Of a DNA stretch of 64,000 nt, positions 4,237-17,376 are shown one piece after another (the stretch's first letter is position 1; each line of letters starts with the position of its first letter). Below the pieces are notes generated by a model that was not told the origin of the DNA, made no database searches, and worked only from the letters and a program-made list of their open reading frames with translations. The DNA comes from Oryzomonas japonica (GTDB lineage Bacteria; Desulfobacterota; Desulfuromonadia; Geobacterales; Pseudopelobacteraceae): NCBI RefSeq assembly GCF_008802365.1, contig NZ_VZQZ01000011.1:129501-193500 (forward strand), read 5' to 3'. A program made the translations under genes and the position numbers.

Positions 4237-5862
4237 ATGTCTGTGATGATCGGCCCGGCTAAAAGAAATCTGCGGCGAGTGATGCCGCGACTCATGCAAA
4301 TTATGCGTGTGCTTGCCCGGCACAAGTTCCTGGGCGCCCTACGCGGCAAGGGACATTGGCCTCCACCGAAAGAGGTCCGGGAAACCTTCGAGGAACTGGG
4401 ACTCACCTTTCTTAAATTCGGACAAGTACTCGCGATGCGACGAGATCTGCTGCCGGACGCCTACATCGATGAGTTGGAATTGCTGCATGACCAGTTGCCG
4501 GCGATGAGCACGAGCACAATGCGCGCCAGAATTGAAATAGAACTTGGCGCGCCATGGACGAAATTGTTCGCCTCGTTCAATGAAACGCCGATAGCTTCTG
4601 CCACCATTGCCCAGGTGCATGAAGCGACACTGCTGGACGGGCGTCACGTGGCCGTGAAGGTGCAGCGGCGCGGCCTTGAAAAGATGATCTCCACGGATAT
4701 CGCGGCAATGACCTATCTGGTAGCATTGGTGGAAAGTTTCTTTCCTCGTTTAATTGCGCTCGACCTCCCTGTTCTGGTGCAAGAATTTGCCAAAAGTCTG
4801 AAAAGGGAAACCGATTTTCAACGTGAAGCGCGCTCCATAGTGCTCTTTCGCACTGCGCTGGCGGATATTCCTGACCTCTGGATTCCGGATGTCGTGTCTG
4901 AGTTCTCGACCGGAAACATTCTCACAATGGAGTTCTCTGCTGGTGAACGTGTAGATATCTACGCAAAACAACAACCTGAAGCTATGCCGCGGGCGATCAA
5001 CACCCTGGTTAGGCTTATGCTACAAACTATTTTCGAAGAGGGATTGTTCCACGCAGATCCGCATCCCGGCAATGTGTTGGTTCTGCCCGATGGACGGCTC
5101 TCCTTGCTTGATTTCGGGATGACGGGTGAGCTTGACGAGTCGATGCGCGAATCGCTGACGCTCCTGCTCGAAGCGGTCGTGAAAGGCGATGCCCGGGCCG
5201 CCAAAGAGGCGTATCTTGAAATGGCACCGCAGGGGAGCGAAAAGGTCGATCGTGCGGAGTTGTTGATGGACATAAAGGCCGTACTCACTGAAATTCACAG
5301 GAGCGATCTTGCTGTTGTTTCGGTCGGGGAAGTGTTCGATTCGCTGCTGCGCGCCGGGAGCCGAAACGGAGTCCACAATCCCCCCGAGTTTTTCCTGCTG
5401 ACGCGTGCCTTCGTCATCCTGGAATCGTTGATACGTCAACTCGATCCGGGCCATAACTACATGGGATCGTTTCGAGAAGAAATCAAACGCCTGACCGCGC
5501 AGCATTTTTCACTGGGGCGGATAAAGGAAAAAACAAGCAAGCTGGCGCGCGAAATGGAACGCTTGATGAATGATGCGCCCGGTGACACGCGACGTGTCCT
5601 CCGACGTATCGCTGAAGGCAACCTGGGCCGCTTTCAGGCTCCGGCTATTGAAGCATTAGGGGGTCGTGTCAGCCGCAACCTAGAACTGCTCACCAGCGCC
5701 ATCATTTCTGCGGCGCTTATGGTCGCTGGAGCGTTGATGGTGAGTACACCACCGGACGCCGGATTGCATCATAATGCCGGCGAAGTAATGGTTACCGCCG
5801 GAATCTTTAGCACGATCTTTATTGCTGTCAAAGCAATACGTCGCGACCGTGGCCGACGCTGA
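4237..5862 (+). CDS. ubiB: ABC1/UbiB-family atypical protein kinase (ubiquinone-biosynthesis-type)
   Basis: 541 aa. aarF/ABC1 signature FNETPIASATIAQVHEATLLDGRHVAVKVQRRG, catalytic HADPHPGNVLV and two C-terminal TM helices. Confidence 0.75.
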   Translation: MSVMIGPAKRNLRRVMPRLMQIMRVLARHKFLGALRGKGHWPPPKEVRETFEELGLTFLKFGQVLAMRRDLLPDAYIDELELLHDQLPAMSTSTMRARIEIELGAPWTKLFASFNETPIASATIAQVHEATLLDGRHVAVKVQRRGLEKMISTDIAAMTYLVALVESFFPRLIALDLPVLVQEFAKSLKRETDFQREARSIVLFRTALADIPDLWIPDVVSEFSTGNILTMEFSAGERVDIYAKQQPEAMPRAINTLVRLMLQTIFEEGLFHADPHPGNVLVLPDGRLSLLDFGMTGELDESMRESLTLLLEAVVKGDARAAKEAYLEMAPQGSEKVDRAELLMDIKAVLTEIHRSDLAVVSVGEVFDSLLRAGSRNGVHNPPEFFLLTRAFVILESLIRQLDPGHNYMGSFREEIKRLTAQHFSLGRIKEKTSKLAREMERLMNDAPGDTRRVLRRIAEGNLGRFQAPAIEALGGRVSRNLELLTSAIISAALMVAGALMVSTPPDAGLHHNAGEVMVTAGIFSTIFIAVKAIRRDRGRR

Positions 5863-5889
5863 CGCTCCCCCCAAAATCCCAGGCTACCT

Positions 5890-6279
5890 TTGCGGCTATT
5901 GGTTGGTTTTTTTGCGGCCATAATGTTAGCGGGTTTCGTTATGAACGAAATCTGGGAAATGGCACAGATGCCCGCTTACGTCGAAACGGCGGAATATTCT
6001 TGGACGAGCACGCTCGGTTTATGCACGCGGGCGGCGGTGGGTGATGTGGGAATCATTCTGGGCCTTTATGCGTCCGGAGCGCTGGCTGCTGGCGATCCCC
6101 GATGGGGCTTACGCGCCAGATGGAACAGGTATGCCACGGCGGCAGCTGTTCTGGGGCTGACGTATGCGGTGCTGGTGGAACATGCGGCGCTAGACGCCGG
6201 ACGCTGGGCGTACAACGAGCAGATGCCCATAGTGCCTATGTTTGTTGGCACGGGCCTGTGGCCGCTACTCCACAAATGA
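5890..6279 (+). CDS. small integral membrane protein, hypothetical (start uncertain, TTG at 5890 or ATG 5923)
   Basis: 129-aa ORF with four hydrophobic helices. No recognisable family. Confidence 0.35.
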   Translation: MRLLVGFFAAIMLAGFVMNEIWEMAQMPAYVETAEYSWTSTLGLCTRAAVGDVGIILGLYASGALAAGDPRWGLRARWNRYATAAAVLGLTYAVLVEHAALDAGRWAYNEQMPIVPMFVGTGLWPLLHK

Positions 6280-9866: not shown

Positions 9867-10592
9867 ATGCTCACACGAAGACAGTTTATTGCGGCTGGCG
9901 CCGGATTATTGTTGGTGCCGCACAGCTCGCTGGCAAAGGCGCTCATGAAGCACACCGCTTCCACAGGAATCAGCGACCTCGTCGAGAACGGCGACATCCC
10001 AAAGGACATCGCCGTTGGTCCGAACATAACCGCCGAGCAGTTCATTGCCGCCCAACGCGACGAAAAGGCCCTCGAAAGCCTGGTGGGCGGCCTTGTTGAG
10101 CGCAAGATAAAGGGTCAGCCTTTGTTCAACGAGGGGAAGATCATTCTCTATAACACACACTTCAAGGAACGGTACCTCTTCAAGTTCAGAAACGGCTACG
10201 GGGAGTATGATCCCAAGATCCTCGGCTCGCTCAACTATTTCATGCGCTGCAATTATGACAACAAATACACTGATATGGACATTGCAACCATAGAGATGAT
10301 CAACTACGTTGCACAACTCCTCGGGGTCAAGGAGATCTACATCAACTCAGCCTACCGGACGCCGGAATACAACGCCATACTCGCCAGGAAAAGCGAGAAC
10401 GTGGCGCGCAACTCGTTCCACATGCAGGGCAAGGCGGTGGACTACTCCATACCTGGCGTGCCGATCAGCAAAGTGTGCCAGTATGCCCAGCTGGCGCGCA
10501 ACTATTTCGGCTACGGCGGCGTCGGCTATTATCCGCGGCAGAACTTCGTGCATAACGACAGCGGACCGCTTCGCAACTGGGCGAAGAAGTAG
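9867..10592 (+). CDS. Tat-secreted YcbK/DUF882 family peptidase M15A-like protein
   Basis: Tat motif MLTRRQFIAAGAGLLLVPHSSLA. YRTPEYNAILARKSENVARNSFHMQGKAVDYSIPGVPI...GVGYYPRQNFVHNDSGPLRNW matches the YcbK family. Confidence 0.8.
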   Translation: MLTRRQFIAAGAGLLLVPHSSLAKALMKHTASTGISDLVENGDIPKDIAVGPNITAEQFIAAQRDEKALESLVGGLVERKIKGQPLFNEGKIILYNTHFKERYLFKFRNGYGEYDPKILGSLNYFMRCNYDNKYTDMDIATIEMINYVAQLLGVKEIYINSAYRTPEYNAILARKSENVARNSFHMQGKAVDYSIPGVPISKVCQYAQLARNYFGYGGVGYYPRQNFVHNDSGPLRNWAKK

Positions 10593-10785
10593 CCGTCACA
10601 CTCCAGAGCAGATCATTTGCAAATAACTATCTAATATTTACTGATGTTCCCCACTACTCCTTTTCATCTCTCGTGGCACGTCACTATAGGGTAAAGGTAT
10701 TTGTACGGTTACTGATGCCGGTATCATTGTTTCAGGCCCATAGCCCACAAGTTGCACACGTCAAAACCGGCGGGAGGTTTAACCC

Positions 10786-11250
10786 ATGATTTTTCAGAGT
10801 GGCACAAAGGAGACCGTCTTGGCCAACCACACCGAGTTCCCGGTGGGAGAACTGCTTCTCCGTACCTATGCAAAGCCGAGCGATACGAACGCGAATGGAG
10901 ATATCTTCGGGGGATGGATCATGTCGCAGATGGACATCGCCGGCGGCATGTTGGCAATAGAGATCACCGGCGGCCGGGCCGTGACTATTGCGGTGGACGC
11001 GATGAAATTCATCAAACCGGTAAAAACCGGCGATATTGTCTGTTGCTTCGGCAAAGTTACAAGGATCGGGAACACCTCCATCACCATCAGGCTGGAGGTT
11101 TGGGTTAAGCCGAGCCTGAGGGAAGCACCGACCGACAAGGAAAACGCATTGTACTTGGTCACGGAAGCTTCATACACCTATGTGGCCGTTGACCAGGAAG
11201 GGCGCAAACGGCAGTTCCAGAAACCGGCTGCTCGCCAACACGAGCAATAG
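10786..11250 (+). CDS. acyl-CoA thioester hydrolase (YciA/hotdog family)
   Basis: ANGDIFGGWIMSQMDIAGG...AVTIAVDAMKFIKPVKTGDIV is a hotdog-fold thioesterase signature. Confidence 0.75.
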   Translation: MIFQSGTKETVLANHTEFPVGELLLRTYAKPSDTNANGDIFGGWIMSQMDIAGGMLAIEITGGRAVTIAVDAMKFIKPVKTGDIVCCFGKVTRIGNTSITIRLEVWVKPSLREAPTDKENALYLVTEASYTYVAVDQEGRKRQFQKPAARQHEQ

Positions 11251-11459
11251 AGCCCCCCCTCACGGCACCACCTTCGGCATGCCGTAAAGGCCGAAGTACC
11301 ATCGGGCGGCTGCTTTTTCCGTGGGGATTGCGATATCGAGCGACGCAATATCGTAATTACCTTTTGAAATCATAATTTAAATCCAATAAACCAATTTGAC
11401 CTTGACCGGTTAACACTTTAGGATGCTCCTCCGCTAACTAATGCCGAGGGAGCTTTTTC

Positions 11460-11876
11460 ATGAAATATGTATCCGCACTGTTCGTACTCCTGATTCCTTC
11501 CCTCCTGTTTGCCGACCAGATTCCAACCGTGTGCCACAACGAACTGTCGTCATGGATCAAGGCCAATAAGAAGCTTTCCATAGTGGATATCCAAAATGCC
11601 GAAGGGTTTCGCGCCCACAATTACGACCACTCGCTCGCCGCGGGTAACGACCCGGCATTTTTGAAAAAAATCGCCGCCAGATTGCGTTCGACCAAAGGCA
11701 GGGTGATTGTGGTCAGCGCAACAGGCGGCAGCGACGCCGTGCATGCCGCGGAGTCGCTCGAACGCGGGGGCGTTCAACATTCCCGGCTCCTGGTGCTGGA
11801 GGGGGGGATGGAGGCAGCGGCCAAGAATGCGGCCTGCGAATGCTGCAAGCCGGCCCAATCAGGTAAAACAGAATGA
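11460..11876 (+). CDS. secreted rhodanese-domain protein
   Basis: Signal peptide then a rhodanese-like fold (IVDIQNAEGFRAHNYDHSLA, VIVVSATGGS). Stop overlaps the next start (ATGA). Confidence 0.65.
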   Translation: MKYVSALFVLLIPSLLFADQIPTVCHNELSSWIKANKKLSIVDIQNAEGFRAHNYDHSLAAGNDPAFLKKIAARLRSTKGRVIVVSATGGSDAVHAAESLERGGVQHSRLLVLEGGMEAAAKNAACECCKPAQSGKTE

Positions 11877-14302
11877 GTTCGATCCAGAGTGAAACCGGGA
11901 CGTTGCGGCCGCAACTGGCGGCGCTGCTTGCGGACGAAATCAGCGGCTGCACCGGGTGCGGCGTCTGCGTCGGGGAGTGCGGATTCCTGAAACTCTACGG
12001 CTCCCCCCGGGATATTGCCCGTTCCTACGATCCGGATGACCCGAAAAAAAATGTCGTCTGTTTCGAGTGCAGCCTCTGCGGACTCTGCTCGGCCGTCTGC
12101 CCCTCCGGCGTCAAGCCCCAGGCCCTCTTTCTGGAGATGCGGCGCGAGGCGATCGACCGGGGCTTTGGCTCGTTCCGCGAGCACAAGGGGCTTCTCGGGT
12201 ATGAGAGGACCGGCACATCCCGCCGTTTCAGTTGGTACGGCTTGCCGGAAGGATGCACCACGATCTTTTTCCCGGGCTGTGCCTTGCCAGGCACGCGCCC
12301 CAGCGTAACCGTCGCGGTCTATGAGCGGCTGAAAGAGGCGTTTCCCGACCTCGGCCTGGTGTTGGACTGCTGCACCAAACCGTCCCACGACCTGGGGAGG
12401 GAACAGTATTTCTCCCAGATGTTCGGCGAGATGGTGGCCTGGCTGGAATCCCACGGGATACAACGGGTCCTGGTGGCCTGCCCCAACTGCTACAAGGTCT
12501 TTACCGAATACGCCCCCCAGTTTCAGACGGAAACGGTCTACGAAAGGCTTGCCGGGATCATGCCGGAGACAACGGCGGAGGCGACATCTTCTCCGGTGGC
12601 CATCCACGACCCCTGCGTGATCAGGTTCGCCTCCGCGCCGCAGGAAGCGGCCCGTGGACTGGTTTCCCGATCCGGCCGCGTGATCGCAGAGATGTCGCAC
12701 ACACGCACAAGAACACTCTGCTGCGGTGAGGGTGGGACCGTGGGGGCCCTGGCCCCCGACCTGGCCGATGCCTGGGGAGAACTCCGGGTGGGTGAAGCCG
12801 CGGGCCGTCAAGTTGTCACCTACTGTGCCGGCTGCGCCAACCACCTCGGGAAACGGCTGAAGGTCAGCCATGTCCTCGACCTTCTTTTCAACGCGTCGAA
12901 ACCGTCATCGGGGCCGATCACCTATGTCAATCGCCTGCGGCTCAAATCCCGGTTCAAGAGAATCGTGCCCGCCGTCATAAGCCGGGAGAGGACCGTCCCC
13001 GGCGGCGGGTCCGGGATGCTCCGGCCGCTCCTCTTTCTGGGCGTCATGATCGCCGCCATAGTTCTGGTGCGGGCGAGCGGGGCCGGCCAGTACCTGGAAC
13101 CGGAACGGCTGCGTGCCCTGTTTAGCGGCTTCGGCATCGTGGCGCCGCTGGTGTACATCGCCATCTATACGGTCGCTCCCGCCCTGATGCTGCCCGGCCT
13201 CCCCCTCAGCATGGCCGGAGCAACAGTTTTCGGGCCGGTCTGGGGGGTGGTCTACACGATCATCGGGGCCACCCTGGGGGCCTGTGCGGCTTTCCTGATC
13301 GCCCGCTATGCCGCCCGGAACTGGGTAGAACGGCAACTGGTCGGTTCGCGGTGGAACAAACTTGACAGCGAAACCGCCCAGAACGGCTGGAAAGCGGTGG
13401 CCTTTACCCGGTTGATCCCCCTGTTCCCCTTCAACCTGCTCAATTTTGCCTTCGGCCTGACGAAGATATCGTTTCCCCAGTATGCCGTGGCAACCTTTAT
13501 CTTCATGCTGCCCGGCACCATCGCCTTTATCACGTTTTCAAGCTCGTTGCTGGGATTGCTCAAGGGGAAGGTCTCCTGGGAGTTTTTCGTCGGCATAGCC
13601 CTCATCGTCGCGGTGTCGCTGATCCCCAGGCTGGTAAAATGGTACCGGAACCGTGAGCGCAGGGAGCCACGGCCGGAAGTCCCATGGAGTTTGCGGAGAA
13701 GCTTGCAGCTCAAGGCCATTGCGGCCGCGGCGCTCGCCGTGACCGCCGCGGCTTGCTATGGCGTGGTTCTGAAGTATTTCTGGGCCCTCAATGCCTATCT
13801 CTATACCCTTGAATTCAACCTGCTCTTTGTGGCTCACCGCCTCCGGGATGGTGATCTGGCCGGTTTCGTCGAATATCTGAAACCCATGTCAAGCGCCCGT
13901 GCCGCCGGGATCGCCCTGGTCTGTCAGGCGATGCACACGTTTGCCTTTCCCTTTTCTCCCCTGAGGACAACGGCTGCCTTTGCCGCGGCTTTCGGTACGC
14001 CGACAGGCCTGGCATACGTCGGCTGCGCCGGTCTGGTCGTCACCGGTCTGAGCGCTCTGCTCGGCCGCTTCTGTCTGGGTGATCTTGCGCCGCTCCACTA
14101 CCGGCACAGGGGGCTGGCGCCACGTACGCCCCCCCCCGCGTGGGCCGTCTGGTGCGCCGGGGCAATGGCGGCGATACCGGGTTTTCCCCTGTTATTGTGC
14201 GGCCTGTGGATCGGGGGATTCCGTATCCAGCCGGGCCGCTCCGTTGCCGCGATCACGGCAGGGCTTGTTGTCCGCATGCTTCTTTCGCTTGCAGCATACT
14301 AA
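11873..14302 (+). CDS. fusion protein with N-terminal HdrD/GlpC-like (Fe-S)-binding oxidoreductase (2x[4Fe-4S] plus two CCG domains), central DedA/TVP38/TMEM64 membrane domain and C-terminal extra TM region
   Basis: Ferredoxin motifs CTGCGVCVGEC and CFECSLCGLCSAVCP. CCG-type Cys clusters (PGCALPG...DCCTKP; DPCVIRF...LCCGEGG...YCAGC). Then RLIPLFPFNLLNFAFGLTKISFPQYAVATFIFMLPGTIAFI, typical of the DedA/TVP38 family. Single uninterrupted 809-codon ORF. Confidence 0.7.
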   Translation: MSSIQSETGTLRPQLAALLADEISGCTGCGVCVGECGFLKLYGSPRDIARSYDPDDPKKNVVCFECSLCGLCSAVCPSGVKPQALFLEMRREAIDRGFGSFREHKGLLGYERTGTSRRFSWYGLPEGCTTIFFPGCALPGTRPSVTVAVYERLKEAFPDLGLVLDCCTKPSHDLGREQYFSQMFGEMVAWLESHGIQRVLVACPNCYKVFTEYAPQFQTETVYERLAGIMPETTAEATSSPVAIHDPCVIRFASAPQEAARGLVSRSGRVIAEMSHTRTRTLCCGEGGTVGALAPDLADAWGELRVGEAAGRQVVTYCAGCANHLGKRLKVSHVLDLLFNASKPSSGPITYVNRLRLKSRFKRIVPAVISRERTVPGGGSGMLRPLLFLGVMIAAIVLVRASGAGQYLEPERLRALFSGFGIVAPLVYIAIYTVAPALMLPGLPLSMAGATVFGPVWGVVYTIIGATLGACAAFLIARYAARNWVERQLVGSRWNKLDSETAQNGWKAVAFTRLIPLFPFNLLNFAFGLTKISFPQYAVATFIFMLPGTIAFITFSSSLLGLLKGKVSWEFFVGIALIVAVSLIPRLVKWYRNRERREPRPEVPWSLRRSLQLKAIAAAALAVTAAACYGVVLKYFWALNAYLYTLEFNLLFVAHRLRDGDLAGFVEYLKPMSSARAAGIALVCQAMHTFAFPFSPLRTTAAFAAAFGTPTGLAYVGCAGLVVTGLSALLGRFCLGDLAPLHYRHRGLAPRTPPPAWAVWCAGAMAAIPGFPLLLCGLWIGGFRIQPGRSVAAITAGLVVRMLLSLAAY

Positions 14303-14321
14303 CTACCGCAGGAGGTTTCAT

Positions 14322-15062
14322 ATGAACCGATTCGCACTTCGCACCATGCTGGCAGCCTTACTTTGCTGTGCCCTTGCCCTGCCTGCCGGAGCGGCCAAGC
14401 ACAAATCGGGCGGGGTAACGACCGTCAAATCCGGTACCGACACCATGACGGTCGATCTAAAGGCCCGGGAGGTCCGCGTTACCTCCACGGTGCTCAAAGA
14501 CTGCTCCCAACCATCGGTATGCGACTGGGGACGTCGCTTCCAGGCCTTTTTCGGCAGCAAGAGCGGCAAGATGGCTTCTTTCTTCATCTTCTCCACGGAG
14601 GTAAACCGGACCGATATCGACAAGGCCATCAAGTCTGTCGGCATCAAGTCCCGACGCCAGATCCCCATGACCGAGGTCAAGCAGCGCACCGGCCTGAAAT
14701 CCACCACCAGGAAGGAGGACTATCTCGACGGCGATCCGGTGCTGGTGTCCGTACGCTGGAAAAAGAACGGTAAAATGGTCGAGGTGGCAATTGAAGATCT
14801 GATCGAAGAAAAGATTGCGGTTGACGGCAAGGACGTCGTCAAACCCTATACCCCGCATTTCGTCTACCACGGCACGGCCGAGGCGATCAACTTTGCATCG
14901 GGCTGTATCGTCTGCCCATCCGGGTGCAACGGGGGGATCATCGCCGACAATTCACTTCCCCTGAAGGAGACAAAGAATTATTACCGTTTTGACTGGAGCA
15001 AGATGCCGGCGCCCGGAACAAAGGCCGAAATCGTAATCAAGTCGATTTACGGTACTAAGTAA
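14322..15062 (+). CDS. secreted hypothetical protein (Cys-containing C-terminus)
   Basis: RBS AGGAGG 6 nt upstream. Signal peptide MNRFALRTMLAALLCCALALPAGAA. 246 aa. Confidence 0.6.
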   Translation: MNRFALRTMLAALLCCALALPAGAAKHKSGGVTTVKSGTDTMTVDLKAREVRVTSTVLKDCSQPSVCDWGRRFQAFFGSKSGKMASFFIFSTEVNRTDIDKAIKSVGIKSRRQIPMTEVKQRTGLKSTTRKEDYLDGDPVLVSVRWKKNGKMVEVAIEDLIEEKIAVDGKDVVKPYTPHFVYHGTAEAINFASGCIVCPSGCNGGIIADNSLPLKETKNYYRFDWSKMPAPGTKAEIVIKSIYGTK

Positions 15063-15339
15063 TACAAGAAACGAGAGAAGTTCACCGACCGATTCAGCAC
15101 ACACGCGACAAAAACGGAAAGAGGAACCGCACGACAGCGGTTCCTCTTTCCGTTTACTCCATCATCCCAATCGAATTTTTCTCTTTTTTGTACACCAATT
15201 ACAAAATCGCTTCACATCAATTCAACCTGAGGTATACTTTATGCCTGTGCTAAACATTATCCTCCTATCTCCATAGGTAGTGGGGCGCAGTCCATCACGT
15301 GGGCTCATTGTTCAAAGATTCCACAATCCGGGAGTGTAC

Positions 15340-17376
15340 ATGAAAAGGCGTTTCCTGATCGCACCCTGTCCGGCGAAATCCTGTTCATCGTTCCCGAGCA
15401 TCTTGTTCGGCATCATTCCCCTGGCGGCCTTTTTCCTCCTTCTCCTCCGCCCTGCCCTGCTTTTGGCCGGCACTACCGTGCTGACGCCGGTCACCCTGCA
15501 ATTGAAGTGGAAACACCAGTTTCAATTCGCCGGATATTATGCCGCCGTGGAAAAGGGCTACTACCGCGATGCCGGGCTGATGGTAACGCTCCGTGAGGCG
15601 GCCCAGGGGAGCGATCCCGTGGACGCGGTTCTGAACGGTGAGGCCCAGTTCGGGGTGGGAGGCAGCTCTCTGGTCCTGATGCGGGCTGAGGGAAAACCGG
15701 TCGTCGCCCTTGCCGCCATCCTGCAGCATTCGCCCCTGGGCATCCTCTCCCTCAACGCAAATAACATCAAAAATGTCCATGATCTGGCGGGCAAACGGGT
15801 CATGCTTGAACCGATGCCGGCCGAGGTCATGGCGCTCTTCAGGGCGGAGGCGGTACCCGACGACGCGATCAGGGTCGTTCCCCACGAATTTTCCCTCGAA
15901 AAGCTCCTGAACGGCGAGGTTGACGCCGCCTCTGTCTACAGCACGACCGAACCCTATCAGCTCGAAAAACGAAGAATCGCCTATTCCATTATCTATCCCG
16001 AGCGGAGCGGAATCGATTTCTACGGCGACACGCTCTTCACGCGCCAGGAGGTGGTACAAAAGCAACCCGAGGTGGTGCGGCAATTTCGCGATGCAAGTCT
16101 GCGCGGCTGGAAATACGCCCTTGAACATCAGGATGAAATGATCGACCTCATCCTGAAACGTTACAACACCGGCCGCCTCACCAGGGGGCAGCTTGCCTAC
16201 GAAGCGGGAGAGCTGCAAAAGCTGATCAGACCGGACCTGGTGGAAGTCGGCTACATGAACCCCGGCCGGTGGCAGCACATCGCCGACACCTATTCCCAGC
16301 TGGGGATAATCCCGGCATCGAAACCGTTCCCCCTGGAAAGCTTCCTCCATGCCGGCGAACAGCCACGGCTCCCGGATTGGCTTTACGGGGCCTTGGGCGG
16401 GGCCATGGTGATCATCATCGCCGTCTCTGTGGTAGCCATCCGCTTTCACTACCTTAACGCGGCGCTCAACGATCAGATGCAGTTGCGCGACAAGGCCGAG
16501 GCAAAGCTGCGGAAGCTGTCGGCGGCCATCATTCAAAGCCCGGTTTCGATCGTTATCACCGACACGACCGGCGCAATCGAATACGTCAACCCCAAGTTCT
16601 GCGAGCTTACCGGCTATACGGCGGAGGAGGTCGCCGGCCAGAATCCCCGCATCCTGCGCGGCAGCATCCTGCCCCCCGAATTCTACGATGATCTCTGGCG
16701 GACCATTCTCGCCGGCGGACTCTGGCATGGGGAGTTTCTGAACAAGAAGAAGAATGAGGAGCTGTTCTGGGAACATGCCACCATCGCCCCCATCTGGGAC
16801 ACACAAGGCGAGCTCACCAACTTCATCGCCATCAAGGAGGATATCACCGAGCGCAAGATGTTGCAGGAAAAGCTCAATCACATGGCCCATCACGACGAAC
16901 TGACCGGCCTGCCCAACCGGGCGCTCTTCTTTGACAGGATCGGGCAGGCGCTGGCCCATGCCAAAAGGAATCAGACGGGATTCGCCCTGCTGTTCGTGGA
17001 CCTGGATGGTTTCAAGACGATCAATGATACCTACGGGCATGACAGCGGCGATGCGCTGTTGCGGGAGACGGCCCGGCGCCTTTCGGGGTGCGTCAGGGAC
17101 TCGGATACGGTCGCGCGCATGGGGGGAGACGAATTTGCGGTCATGCTGCTGGATGTTGCCGCTCTCGGGCATATCACCCAGGTGGCGGAGAAGATGCTGA
17201 CGCTTCTTTCGATGCCGTTCATGTTCAAAGGGCTCGAGTGCCATGTGGGGGCGAGCATCGGCATCAGCATCTTCCCCCAGGATGGCGACGCCGTGGACAC
17301 CCTCATGAACACGGCCGACATGGCCATGTACCGCGTCAAGCAAGGCACCAAAAACAACTATGCCTTTGCCTCATAA
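15340..17376 (+). CDS. sensor diguanylate cyclase with periplasmic NMT1/SsuA-like substrate-binding domain, TM, PAS and GGDEF
   Basis: N-terminal signal/TM. NMT1-like fold (VTLQLKWKHQFQFAGYYAAVEKGYY...). TM helix (YGALGGAMVIIIAVSVVAI). PAS (SPVSIVITDTTGAIEYVNPKFCELTGY). GGDEF motif (RMGGDEFAV). Confidence 0.85.
   Translation: MKRRFLIAPCPAKSCSSFPSILFGIIPLAAFFLLLLRPALLLAGTTVLTPVTLQLKWKHQFQFAGYYAAVEKGYYRDAGLMVTLREAAQGSDPVDAVLNGEAQFGVGGSSLVLMRAEGKPVVALAAILQHSPLGILSLNANNIKNVHDLAGKRVMLEPMPAEVMALFRAEAVPDDAIRVVPHEFSLEKLLNGEVDAASVYSTTEPYQLEKRRIAYSIIYPERSGIDFYGDTLFTRQEVVQKQPEVVRQFRDASLRGWKYALEHQDEMIDLILKRYNTGRLTRGQLAYEAGELQKLIRPDLVEVGYMNPGRWQHIADTYSQLGIIPASKPFPLESFLHAGEQPRLPDWLYGALGGAMVIIIAVSVVAIRFHYLNAALNDQMQLRDKAEAKLRKLSAAIIQSPVSIVITDTTGAIEYVNPKFCELTGYTAEEVAGQNPRILRGSILPPEFYDDLWRTILAGGLWHGEFLNKKKNEELFWEHATIAPIWDTQGELTNFIAIKEDITERKMLQEKLNHMAHHDELTGLPNRALFFDRIGQALAHAKRNQTGFALLFVDLDGFKTINDTYGHDSGDALLRETARRLSGCVRDSDTVARMGGDEFAVMLLDVAALGHITQVAEKMLTLLSMPFMFKGLECHVGASIGISIFPQDGDAVDTLMNTADMAMYRVKQGTKNNYAFAS

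Follow-up and report, generated by a model that had tools for sequence, protein, structure and literature searches.

The 64,000-nucleotide stretch of Oryzomonas japonica DNA analysed in this study (contig NZ_VZQZ01000011.1; hereafter the window) contains a gene at 11873..14302 (+ strand) that encodes a protein of 809 aa with the following four parts: an iron-sulfur (Fe-S) head with two CCG domains, a basic amphipathic helix, a VTT/DedA domain (VTT1) and a diverged second VTT-like domain at the C-terminus (the Ct module). The fusion is real and conserved, and it therefore reflects functional coupling of the Fe-S and DedA parts. The gene forms one operon with a rhodanese-like gene upstream and ydjY downstream. 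As to function, we tentatively propose that this operon serves chalcogen acquisition by an import-and-reduce route; selenium is the leading candidate, and sulfane sulfur would be the alternative.

The fusion gene and its product

The ORF finder returned a single open reading frame (ORF) with an ATG start, and its product was identical to the RefSeq protein WP_246167072.1, which is recorded as 'VTT domain-containing protein' of O. japonica (Geobacteraceae). The reading frame was preserved in 70 homologues of 780-860 aa, with identity down to 45%. A C9 homopolymer lies inside the Ct module (14129..14137, + strand); read directly, it encodes T-P-P-P in frame, and the homologue alignment showed conserved positions on its 3' side (P769, P772, G781, R784 and R801). 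The identical RefSeq protein, the in-frame homologues and the conserved residues past the C9 run demonstrate that the ORF is real and continuous, which agrees with the single 809-codon ORF read in an earlier note on this DNA. The presence of a homopolymer in the 3' part of the gene, together with an orthologue of just 594 aa in Oryzomonas sagensis, might suggest that two genes had been joined artificially by a frameshift or by misassembly, the C9 run being one possible place. This explanation has practically no credibility and was rejected, because the full-length homologues come from independent assemblies, the residues downstream of the run are conserved, and the short form of O. sagensis results from a clean deletion of 1,147 bp, after which part of ydjY is still present. 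The earlier note had also held that separate genes in relatives would speak against the fusion; where relatives are split, the break falls between VTT1 and the Ct module, and the argument does not apply to the Fe-S/VTT junction.

Domains were called by a Pfam search of the 809-aa protein with gathering cut-offs. The head begins with a ferredoxin-type dicluster domain (residues 23-80; 11939..12112, + strand; Fer4_17/Fer4_8), in which each cysteine of the motifs C26xxC29xxC32xxxC36 and C66xxC69xxC72xxxC76P is at least 90% conserved. Two stretches matched Pfam CCG (E 6e-12), the better one at residues 242-325. CCG domain 1 (residues 128-206; 12254..12490, + strand) has the pattern C136...C166-C167...C203-P-N205-C206, with a further conserved C128, and the third residue of its motif is Thr instead of Gly. 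CCG domain 2 (residues 242-325; 12596..12847, + strand) has the pattern C248...C283-C284-G...C318xxC321. All ten CCG cysteines (C136/166/167/203/206 and C248/283/284/318/321) are invariant or nearly so. An AlphaFold2 (AF2) model built from 114 sequences reached a mean predicted local distance difference test score (pLDDT) of 86.7 and a predicted template modelling score of 0.64. With two complete ferredoxin motifs, two CCG motifs carrying the ten cysteines and an HdrB-like fold, the head is of the HdrD/HdrB type by sequence and structure prediction. A membrane cytochrome b partner of the HdrE/DsrM type was found neither in the operon nor in related loci, and the DedA-like domains occupy its place.

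The closest solved relatives of the head are membrane-anchored or quinone-linked CCG enzymes, EtfD and HdrB; the family profile matched EtfD with E 6e-17 and HdrB with E about 2e-4. In EtfD the CCG clusters are non-catalytic, since CCG1 has C-T instead of the CC pair and holds a linear [3Fe-4S] cluster, and His583 caps the non-cubane cluster (PMC13083937). In the alignment to EtfD, by contrast, the present protein retained both cysteines of the pair (C166 and C167), and a conserved asparagine, Asn205, stood at the position of the capping His583. Because of these two differences, we infer that the head carries an HdrB-like, substrate-accessible pair of CCG clusters rather than an electron wire. 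Membership of the EtfD family was rejected on the same residues and on the lack of an N-terminal heme-b domain. The closest curated family for the Fe-S/CCG module was NCBIfam NF045663, to which residues 28-363 aligned at model positions 310-659 with 203 bits; this score lies below the cut-off of 530 bits, and the N-terminal NAD(P)H flavoprotein domain of that family is absent, so the protein falls outside it.

The head is followed by a basic amphipathic helix, TY.NRL..K...RER (residues 349-373; 12917..12991, + strand), which is predicted to tether the Fe-S module to the membrane surface. AF2 modelled a helix at residues 349-364, and the hydrophobic moment peaked at residues 356-373, the 99.7th percentile of the soluble part. 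This helix was kept in the stand-alone Fe-S/CCG homologues examined, bar a few truncated or unrelated entries, and about a third of the stand-alone forms add one transmembrane (TM) helix.

The membrane part starts with VTT1, a VTT/DedA domain of the YdjX type (residues 383-596; 13019..13660, + strand). Pfam VTT_dom matched residues 440-556 with E 2e-24 and 86.8 bits against a cut-off of 33.9, and VTT1 shared 30% identity over 219 aa with Escherichia coli YdjX (E 3e-29) and 26% with YdjZ (E 1e-18). The re-entrant-loop motifs LPGLP...FGP..G and R.IP.FPFN..N were invariant in VTT1. By sequence similarity, VTT1 is a member of the COG0398/TVP38 (YdjX) branch of the DedA superfamily. The Ct module (residues 607-808; 13691..14296, + strand) gave no Pfam match at E<=1. 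A first hhalign comparison from a narrow alignment returned E 0.004 and a probability of 8%, and broader alignments were needed; with these, the module matched the VTT profile at a probability of 94.9% and E 4e-8, with 132 columns in a register that covers both re-entrant-loop motifs, whereas three other membrane families used as controls gave E 0.09-0.39. Since this in-register match stands well above the controls, the module is read as a diverged second DedA-like domain. Its AF2 pLDDT was about 90-95, and a fold search for the membrane part found no solved relatives. The C-terminal extension with extra helices described in the earlier note is therefore a membrane domain, as stated there, but not a generic TM tail, and elsewhere it is encoded by a separate gene. 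VTT1 and this degenerate second domain probably form a pseudo-heterodimer. The distribution of Lys and Arg fits a cytoplasmic position of the Fe-S head, of the helices at 481-513 and of the linker at 591-606; the occurrence of the fusion in both domain orders fits as well, and the cytoplasmic Fe-S domain of the earlier note is in agreement with both. A DsbD-like transmembrane thiol relay was considered and rejected, because no membrane cysteine is conserved: C471 is present in 56% across diverse VTT domains, and the cysteines of the Ct module are unconserved.

Distribution, operon and gene neighbourhoods

In a scan of one genome per species, at least 599 stretches matched a sequence pattern, and relatives were encoded in at least 563 matching stretches, mostly in Desulfobacterota (Desulfuromonadales, Syntrophales, Desulfobacterales and Desulfobulbales) and in Nitrospirota. 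Among the 84 loci of a census, 46 had the Fe-S/CCG module with one VTT domain (about 610 aa), 27 had a stand-alone Fe-S/CCG protein, six had Fe-S/CCG, VTT and Ct in one protein (about 810-830 aa) and five had the reversed order, VTT then Fe-S/CCG. The union of an HdrD-like 2x[4Fe-4S]/2xCCG module with DedA/TVP38, first seen in the earlier note, is thus a real and conserved architecture that exists in both orders. At four loci (L014, L042, L052 and L056) the Ct module had its own ORF of 154-221 aa, located after the fusion gene and before ydjY. Second 'Fe-S' matches at L033 and L056 were set aside as unrelated LutB/LutA-like and HdrD-like proteins.

Residues 1-372, used as the query of an exhaustive search, returned 344 clusters (50% identity) at E<=1e-30, and most of them were stand-alone. 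Other proteins joined the module to different partners: in P0264, Fe-S/CCG is followed by a basic linker, a single TM helix and a pair of rhodanese domains predicted to lie outside the membrane; P0266 carries the MprF-type flippase domain PF03706 (LPG_synthase_TM); P0255 carries a response-regulator receiver domain; and P0257 has VTT, then Fe-S/CCG, then Ct. P0383 joins a GltD-like NAD(P)H flavoprotein to Fe-S/CCG; it is a true member of NF045663 (607 bits against the cut-off of 530) and matched the present Fe-S/CCG module with E 3.7e-53 and 36% identity. Because most family members lack DedA and other fusion partners occur, what stays constant in the family is the Fe-S/CCG head, to which DedA and several other membrane or periplasmic partners are joined interchangeably. 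This reverses the picture of a DedA core carrying an Fe-S addition, from which the earlier note had started.

A natural deletion in a close relative, O. sagensis (L090, VZRA01000006.1), separated the core of the system from its accessory parts. This locus shares its gene order with the window (M15 peptidase, thioesterase, fusion gene, PAS-GGDEF and pyrD) and differs from it by two clean deletions. The first corresponds to window positions 11437-11860, the rhodanese-like gene, and the second, of 1,147 bp, to positions 13650-14796, the Ct module and the 5' two-thirds of ydjY. An intact Fe-S/VTT core of 594 aa was retained with 92.7% nucleotide identity, together with the 3' remnant of ydjY. Furthermore, the Ct module, fused or separate, was accompanied by ydjY in every locus where it was found. 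Given this co-loss and this constant company, rhodanese, Ct and YdjY together act like a unit that is accessory to the Fe-S/VTT core.

In the neighbourhood census, ORFs within 5 kb of the gene at the 84 loci were clustered de novo. The most frequent neighbour family was rhodanese (43 loci), followed by YdjY (19), MauE (15), an outer-membrane protein of 283 aa (12), a GT-C-like glycosyltransferase (11), a LysR regulator (11, nine of them divergent upstream), SelD (10), YedF (10), two GT2 glycosyltransferases (10 each) and ArsS/TIGR04282 (9). The identities of SelD, YedF, ArsS and MauE were above curated cut-offs, and ten of the 11 LysR neighbours tested passed NF040786 ('selenium metabolism-associated LysR'). 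These families concentrated around the gene: rhodanese density was 13.1 per 100 kb within 2.5 kb and 0.4 at 7.5-10 kb, and matches within 2.5 kb made up 24/25 for YdjY, 11/16 for SelD and 10/13 for LysR, whereas the control families, histidine kinase and ABC ATPase, showed no distance effect. At least one curated selenium marker (SelD, YedF or LysR) was present in 19 of the 84 loci, seven of which have DedA-containing forms. L010 has the same operon type as the window (rhodanese-like, Fe-S/VTT/Ct and YdjY; 72% identity), with a selenium LysR gene divergent directly upstream. L027 and L028 both combine Fe-S/VTT with YdjY, YedF, ArsS and rhodanese; L028 additionally has MauE and a gene for a NifS/SclA-like desulfurase, and L027 a DUF3343-like ORF. 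The secreted rhodaneses were of two kinds. One, of 170 aa, has a CxxxxC loop, and its best match was the rhodanese domain of the selenoprotein TsoB; the other, of 140 aa, has in the clade of the window a Ser at the catalytic position and has gained a C-terminal CxCC tail.

Two further observations were made at the census loci. A recurrent cluster surrounds the gene for the protein of about 610 aa at 13 loci (L018, L021, L025, L026, L030, L031, L034, L044, L046, L047, L049, L055 and L059); it contains multi-domain rhodaneses, the 283-aa outer-membrane protein, a polyprenyl-P-hexose-synthase-like GT2, a GT-C-like protein of 493 aa, another GT2 and ArsS/TIGR04282, which is the 'arsenosugar'/selenodomain radical-SAM system. 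At L008, from a metagenome-assembled genome of Geobacteraceae (JAAXTM010000001.1), a MerB-like ORF at 5320-5970 lies directly upstream of the fusion gene. It ends in ...GNC followed by TGA, after which the frame continues for about 48 codons (MNFFCTKEHY...). Because this Cys-Sec (cysteine-selenocysteine) dipeptide pattern is that of SaoL, an organometallic-lyase selenoprotein, the truncation of the ORF in the database is probably a missed selenocysteine.

Within the window, the operon begins with a gene for a secreted rhodanese-like protein of 138 aa (11460..11876, + strand; WP_151129552.1). Its TGA stop codon (11874-11876) overlaps the start of the fusion gene as ATGA, which was read directly. 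The coupling to a secreted rhodanese described in the earlier note is thus correct in its overlap and doubtful in its partner: the match to rhodanese (PF00581) scored 19.8 bits, below the gathering cut-off of 22.2, and in the loop VVVSATGGS a Ser replaces the catalytic Cys, where orthologues in other lineages have VVVCPRGGGG. The protein was therefore not placed in the rhodanese family; YdjY is the conserved partner of the membrane part. The ydjY gene (14322..15062, + strand) encodes a secreted YdjY-domain protein of 246 aa with invariant C196xxC199xxxC203, H180 and H184, and is preceded by a ribosome-binding site, AGGAGG, at 14310-14315. The YdjY domain (NF040466/PF27149) scored 97.8 bits against a cut-off of 50, PF27149 is recorded on homologues, and a fold search for YdjY found no solved relatives. 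The mechanical ORF of ydjY (14079-15062) starts 243 nt further upstream and overlaps the fusion gene at its 3' end; translation probably begins at the ATG at 14322. The RefSeq YdjY of O. japonica (205 aa, P0143) has a later start, with which the signal peptide is lost. The CxCC motif at 11835-11852 is the C-terminus (CECCKP) of the rhodanese-like protein without catalytic Cys in the clade of the window. In lineages without that rhodanese, CxCC lies in an N-terminal extension of a YdjY of about 290 aa, ahead of its hydrophobic segment (alignment columns about 50-70). With these placements the motif would lie on opposite sides of the membrane, for which we have no explanation.

A promoter-like site, TTGACC-17-TAGGAT (11396..11424, + strand), was found upstream of the three genes by a consensus scan only. 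It is kept in O. sagensis, whose deletion begins at 11437, and the scan for promoters and terminators was not above chance (two sites against 1.4 expected). An Rfam scan of window positions 10500-15500 gave no match. Downstream of ydjY, a gene at 15280-17376 (+ strand) encodes an NMT1-like periplasmic domain with PAS and GGDEF; it is probably outside the three-gene unit, because Geobacter sp. FeAm09 and O. sagensis keep it in synteny with or without ydjY. Two ORFs on the opposite strand, one of 365 aa (11774-12871) antisense to the fusion gene and one of 652 aa (15385-17343) antisense to the PAS-GGDEF gene, are not genes but shadow ORFs of the kind usual in GC-rich coding DNA.

Proposed function and alternatives

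In the proposed model, the fusion protein would be an inner-membrane iron-sulfur enzyme with a cytoplasmic HdrD/DsrK-like head, pinned to the membrane surface by its basic amphipathic helix. Two cubane [4Fe-4S] clusters would feed two CCG-type non-cubane clusters, of the kind that cleaves S-S bonds. The element may be picked up by periplasmic carriers (the rhodanese-type protein and YdjY) and then passed across the membrane, either free or thiol-bound, by the paired DedA domains. On the cytoplasmic side, the head would then split an S-Se or S-S bond by reduction, in the way that DsrK acts on the DsrC trisulfide, and selenide or sulfide would be released for SelD and related consumers. The data show the anatomy of the domains, their conservation, the other fusions, the neighbouring genes and the joint loss of accessory parts; the substrate, the transport direction, the electron donor and the transport role of DedA are what we infer in this model.

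Several lines of evidence are consistent with the model. The conservation of the ten CCG and eight ferredoxin cysteines, the CC pair in CCG1 and Asn205 support a head of catalytic type, and the sister architecture with an NAD(P)H flavoprotein (NF045663, P0383) supports the reductive direction. Coupling to the membrane and the periplasm is supported by VTT fusions on either side of the head, by the VTT-Fe-S/CCG-Ct order and by the rhodanese fusion of P0264. The acquisition route is further supported by the neighbourhood census, by loci L010, L027 and L028, by the O. sagensis deletion, by the parallel in E. coli and by the link between DedA and selenite uptake that PMC10127716 and PMC11422209 attribute to Ledgham 2005.

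Other observations weigh against the model. None of SelD, YedF, MauE, ArsS or the LysR regulator is encoded in the 64-kb window, and SelD and YedF mostly adjoin forms without DedA: among 27 such loci SelD was a neighbour in 8 and YedF in 6, whereas among 46 Fe-S/VTT loci the counts were 2 and 4. The rhodanese of the clade of the window lacks the catalytic Cys, no Cys is obligatory in the DedA domains (56% conservation for C471), and the operon encodes no electron donor. Characterised DedA proteins move lipids and not solutes (PMC10127716). Moreover, at about 13 loci the Fe-S/VTT gene lies in the glycosyltransferase/ArsS cluster, and one relative has an MprF-type domain, both of which favour a lipid-linked substrate. 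Selenium and sulfur are not distinguished by the present evidence.

The following three other explanations were weighed. The protein could be a heme-free quinol:disulfide oxidoreductase, whose DedA-like domains transport nothing and replace the cytochrome b anchor of HdrDE, DsrMK and EtfD; menaquinol presented at the membrane surface would reduce the Fe-S chain, which in turn would reduce a cytoplasmic S-S or S-Se carrier. The membrane-anchored or quinone-linked nature of the closest solved relatives points in this direction, as do the amphipathic helix kept by almost all family members even without DedA, the interchangeability of the membrane partner (VTT, a single TM helix or LPG_synthase_TM) and the lack of any other electron donor encoded nearby. 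However, VTT domains have neither a quinone-binding motif nor a precedent for such a role, the ferredoxin domain of EtfD faces the membrane whereas here the CCG2 end joins it, and the tight linkage to secreted YdjY and rhodaneses, with the periplasmic-rhodanese fusion, would be left unexplained. We regard this explanation as unlikely.

The handling of a lipid carrier appears improbable. Here the DedA domains would flip a polyprenyl-phosphate-linked or other lipid-linked glycoconjugate intermediate, and the Fe-S head would modify or sense its head group, in a pathway of the arsenosugar/'selenodomain' radical-SAM type. Such a role would accord with characterised DedA proteins, which are lipid scramblases or flippases of undecaprenyl phosphate (UndP) (PMC10127716), with the 13 or so loci that embed the gene for the protein of about 610 aa among GT2s, the GT-C-like protein, the outer-membrane protein and ArsS/TIGR04282, and with the one fusion to PF03706. 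It accords less well with the operon of the window and its close relatives, which contain no glycosyltransferases; moreover, a disulfide-reductase-type cluster has no known role in such pathways, and COG0398 proteins are not the UndP-flippase subfamily (PMC10127716). A redox-gated DedA, in which the Fe-S head senses the cytoplasmic thiol or ferredoxin redox state and switches a housekeeping DedA function in membrane or proton-motive-force homeostasis, is very improbable. The receiver domain of P0255 and the pleiotropic envelope phenotypes of DedA mutants (PMC10127716) would suit it, but four clusters with every ligand of the HdrB type are more than a sensor would need, the NAD(P)H-flavoprotein fusion in NF045663 indicates catalytic turnover, and the specific selenium and sulfur neighbourhood would find no explanation.

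Significance and comparison with known systems

The architecture itself is already known in databases, where it occurs in more than 1,100 protein clusters. The Joint Genome Institute (JGI) labels it 'YdjX/Fe-S oxidoreductase', and a Geobacter genome record reads 'iron-sulfur cluster-binding oxidoreductase, CCG domain pair-containing, and membrane protein'. COG0398-flavoprotein fusions are likewise known, and the kin of the protein are membrane-bound HdrD-like reductases and DedA fusion proteins. The statement in the earlier note that the architecture is not commonly described consequently holds for the literature searched, in which DedA was not mentioned together with a CCG domain, and fails for the databases and for the published redox fusions of COG0398 (PMC10127716). 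In the same literature the Fe-S/CCG-DedA family, the second VTT-like domain, the YdjY linkage and the association with selenium genes were all undescribed, YdjY was essentially uncharacterised, and no function was given for the E. coli ydjX-ynjE cluster; the family is absent from Haft's organometallic-selenoprotein preprint and from Lin et al. 2015.

DedA proteins are nearly universal, yet their COG0398 branch lacks an assigned substrate. The family bears on this question and on that of how selenium is taken up and reduced for SelD in anaerobes. It is a doubtful but consequential idea that COG0398 DedA proteins and YdjY form a widespread, unrecognised route that brings selenium, or sulfane sulfur, across the inner membrane to a cytoplasmic module of the disulfide-reductase type. 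If so, this module would be Fe-S/CCG here and a flavoprotein or an AhpD-like protein elsewhere, including E. coli ydjXYZ-ynjA-E; a missing step upstream of SelD in anaerobes would be supplied; one DedA subfamily would have a solute-handling and not a lipid role; and the family would be a heme-free membrane-bound relative of heterodisulfide reductase. The genomic handles that the family gives on the two questions are Rosetta-stone fusions in both orders, the periplasmic partner YdjY, a natural deletion series, the linkage to curated selenium genes and a tractable parallel in E. coli.

Among known systems, HdrD/HdrBC and DsrK are CCG-domain Fe-S reductases of disulfides or trisulfides, and the present head is built like HdrC plus HdrB. 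Unlike HdrD and DsrK, which have the cytochrome b partners HdrE and DsrM, the present protein has two DedA-like domains as its membrane part, and its sequence similarity to HdrB is remote. Mycobacterial EtfD (PDB 9OJN; PMC13083937) has an N-terminal heme-b domain of five helices, a linear [3Fe-4S] cluster and a His-capped, non-catalytic non-cubane cluster, whereas here the CC pair is kept, Asn stands at the His position, and the membrane domain is C-terminal and of the DedA type. NF045663 ('pyridine nucleotide-disulfide oxidoreductase/dicluster-binding protein', diclust_near_Sec) has a homologous Fe-S/CCG module; its members lack a DedA domain, and the present protein lacks their N-terminal flavoprotein.

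The E. coli cluster ydjX-ydjY-ydjZ-ynjA-ynjBCD-ynjE shares its gene logic with the fusion operon. Two COG0398 DedA proteins flank YdjY there, together with the AhpD-like thiol-redox protein YnjA and the rhodanese YnjE; both transcription units are FNR-activated (PMC3688515), and the cluster is accordingly anaerobic. The genes of E. coli are separate, however, the redox partner is AhpD-like and not Fe-S/CCG, and the similarity of YdjY is local only. Finally, Todor et al. 2023 reported COG0398 DedA proteins fused to a pyridine-nucleotide disulfide oxidoreductase (PF07992/PF02852) (PMC10127716). These fusions combine the same DedA subfamily with a cytoplasmic module that is likewise of the disulfide-reductase type; they were read as a link to aerobic metabolism, whereas the module described here is the oxygen-sensitive Fe-S module of strict anaerobes.

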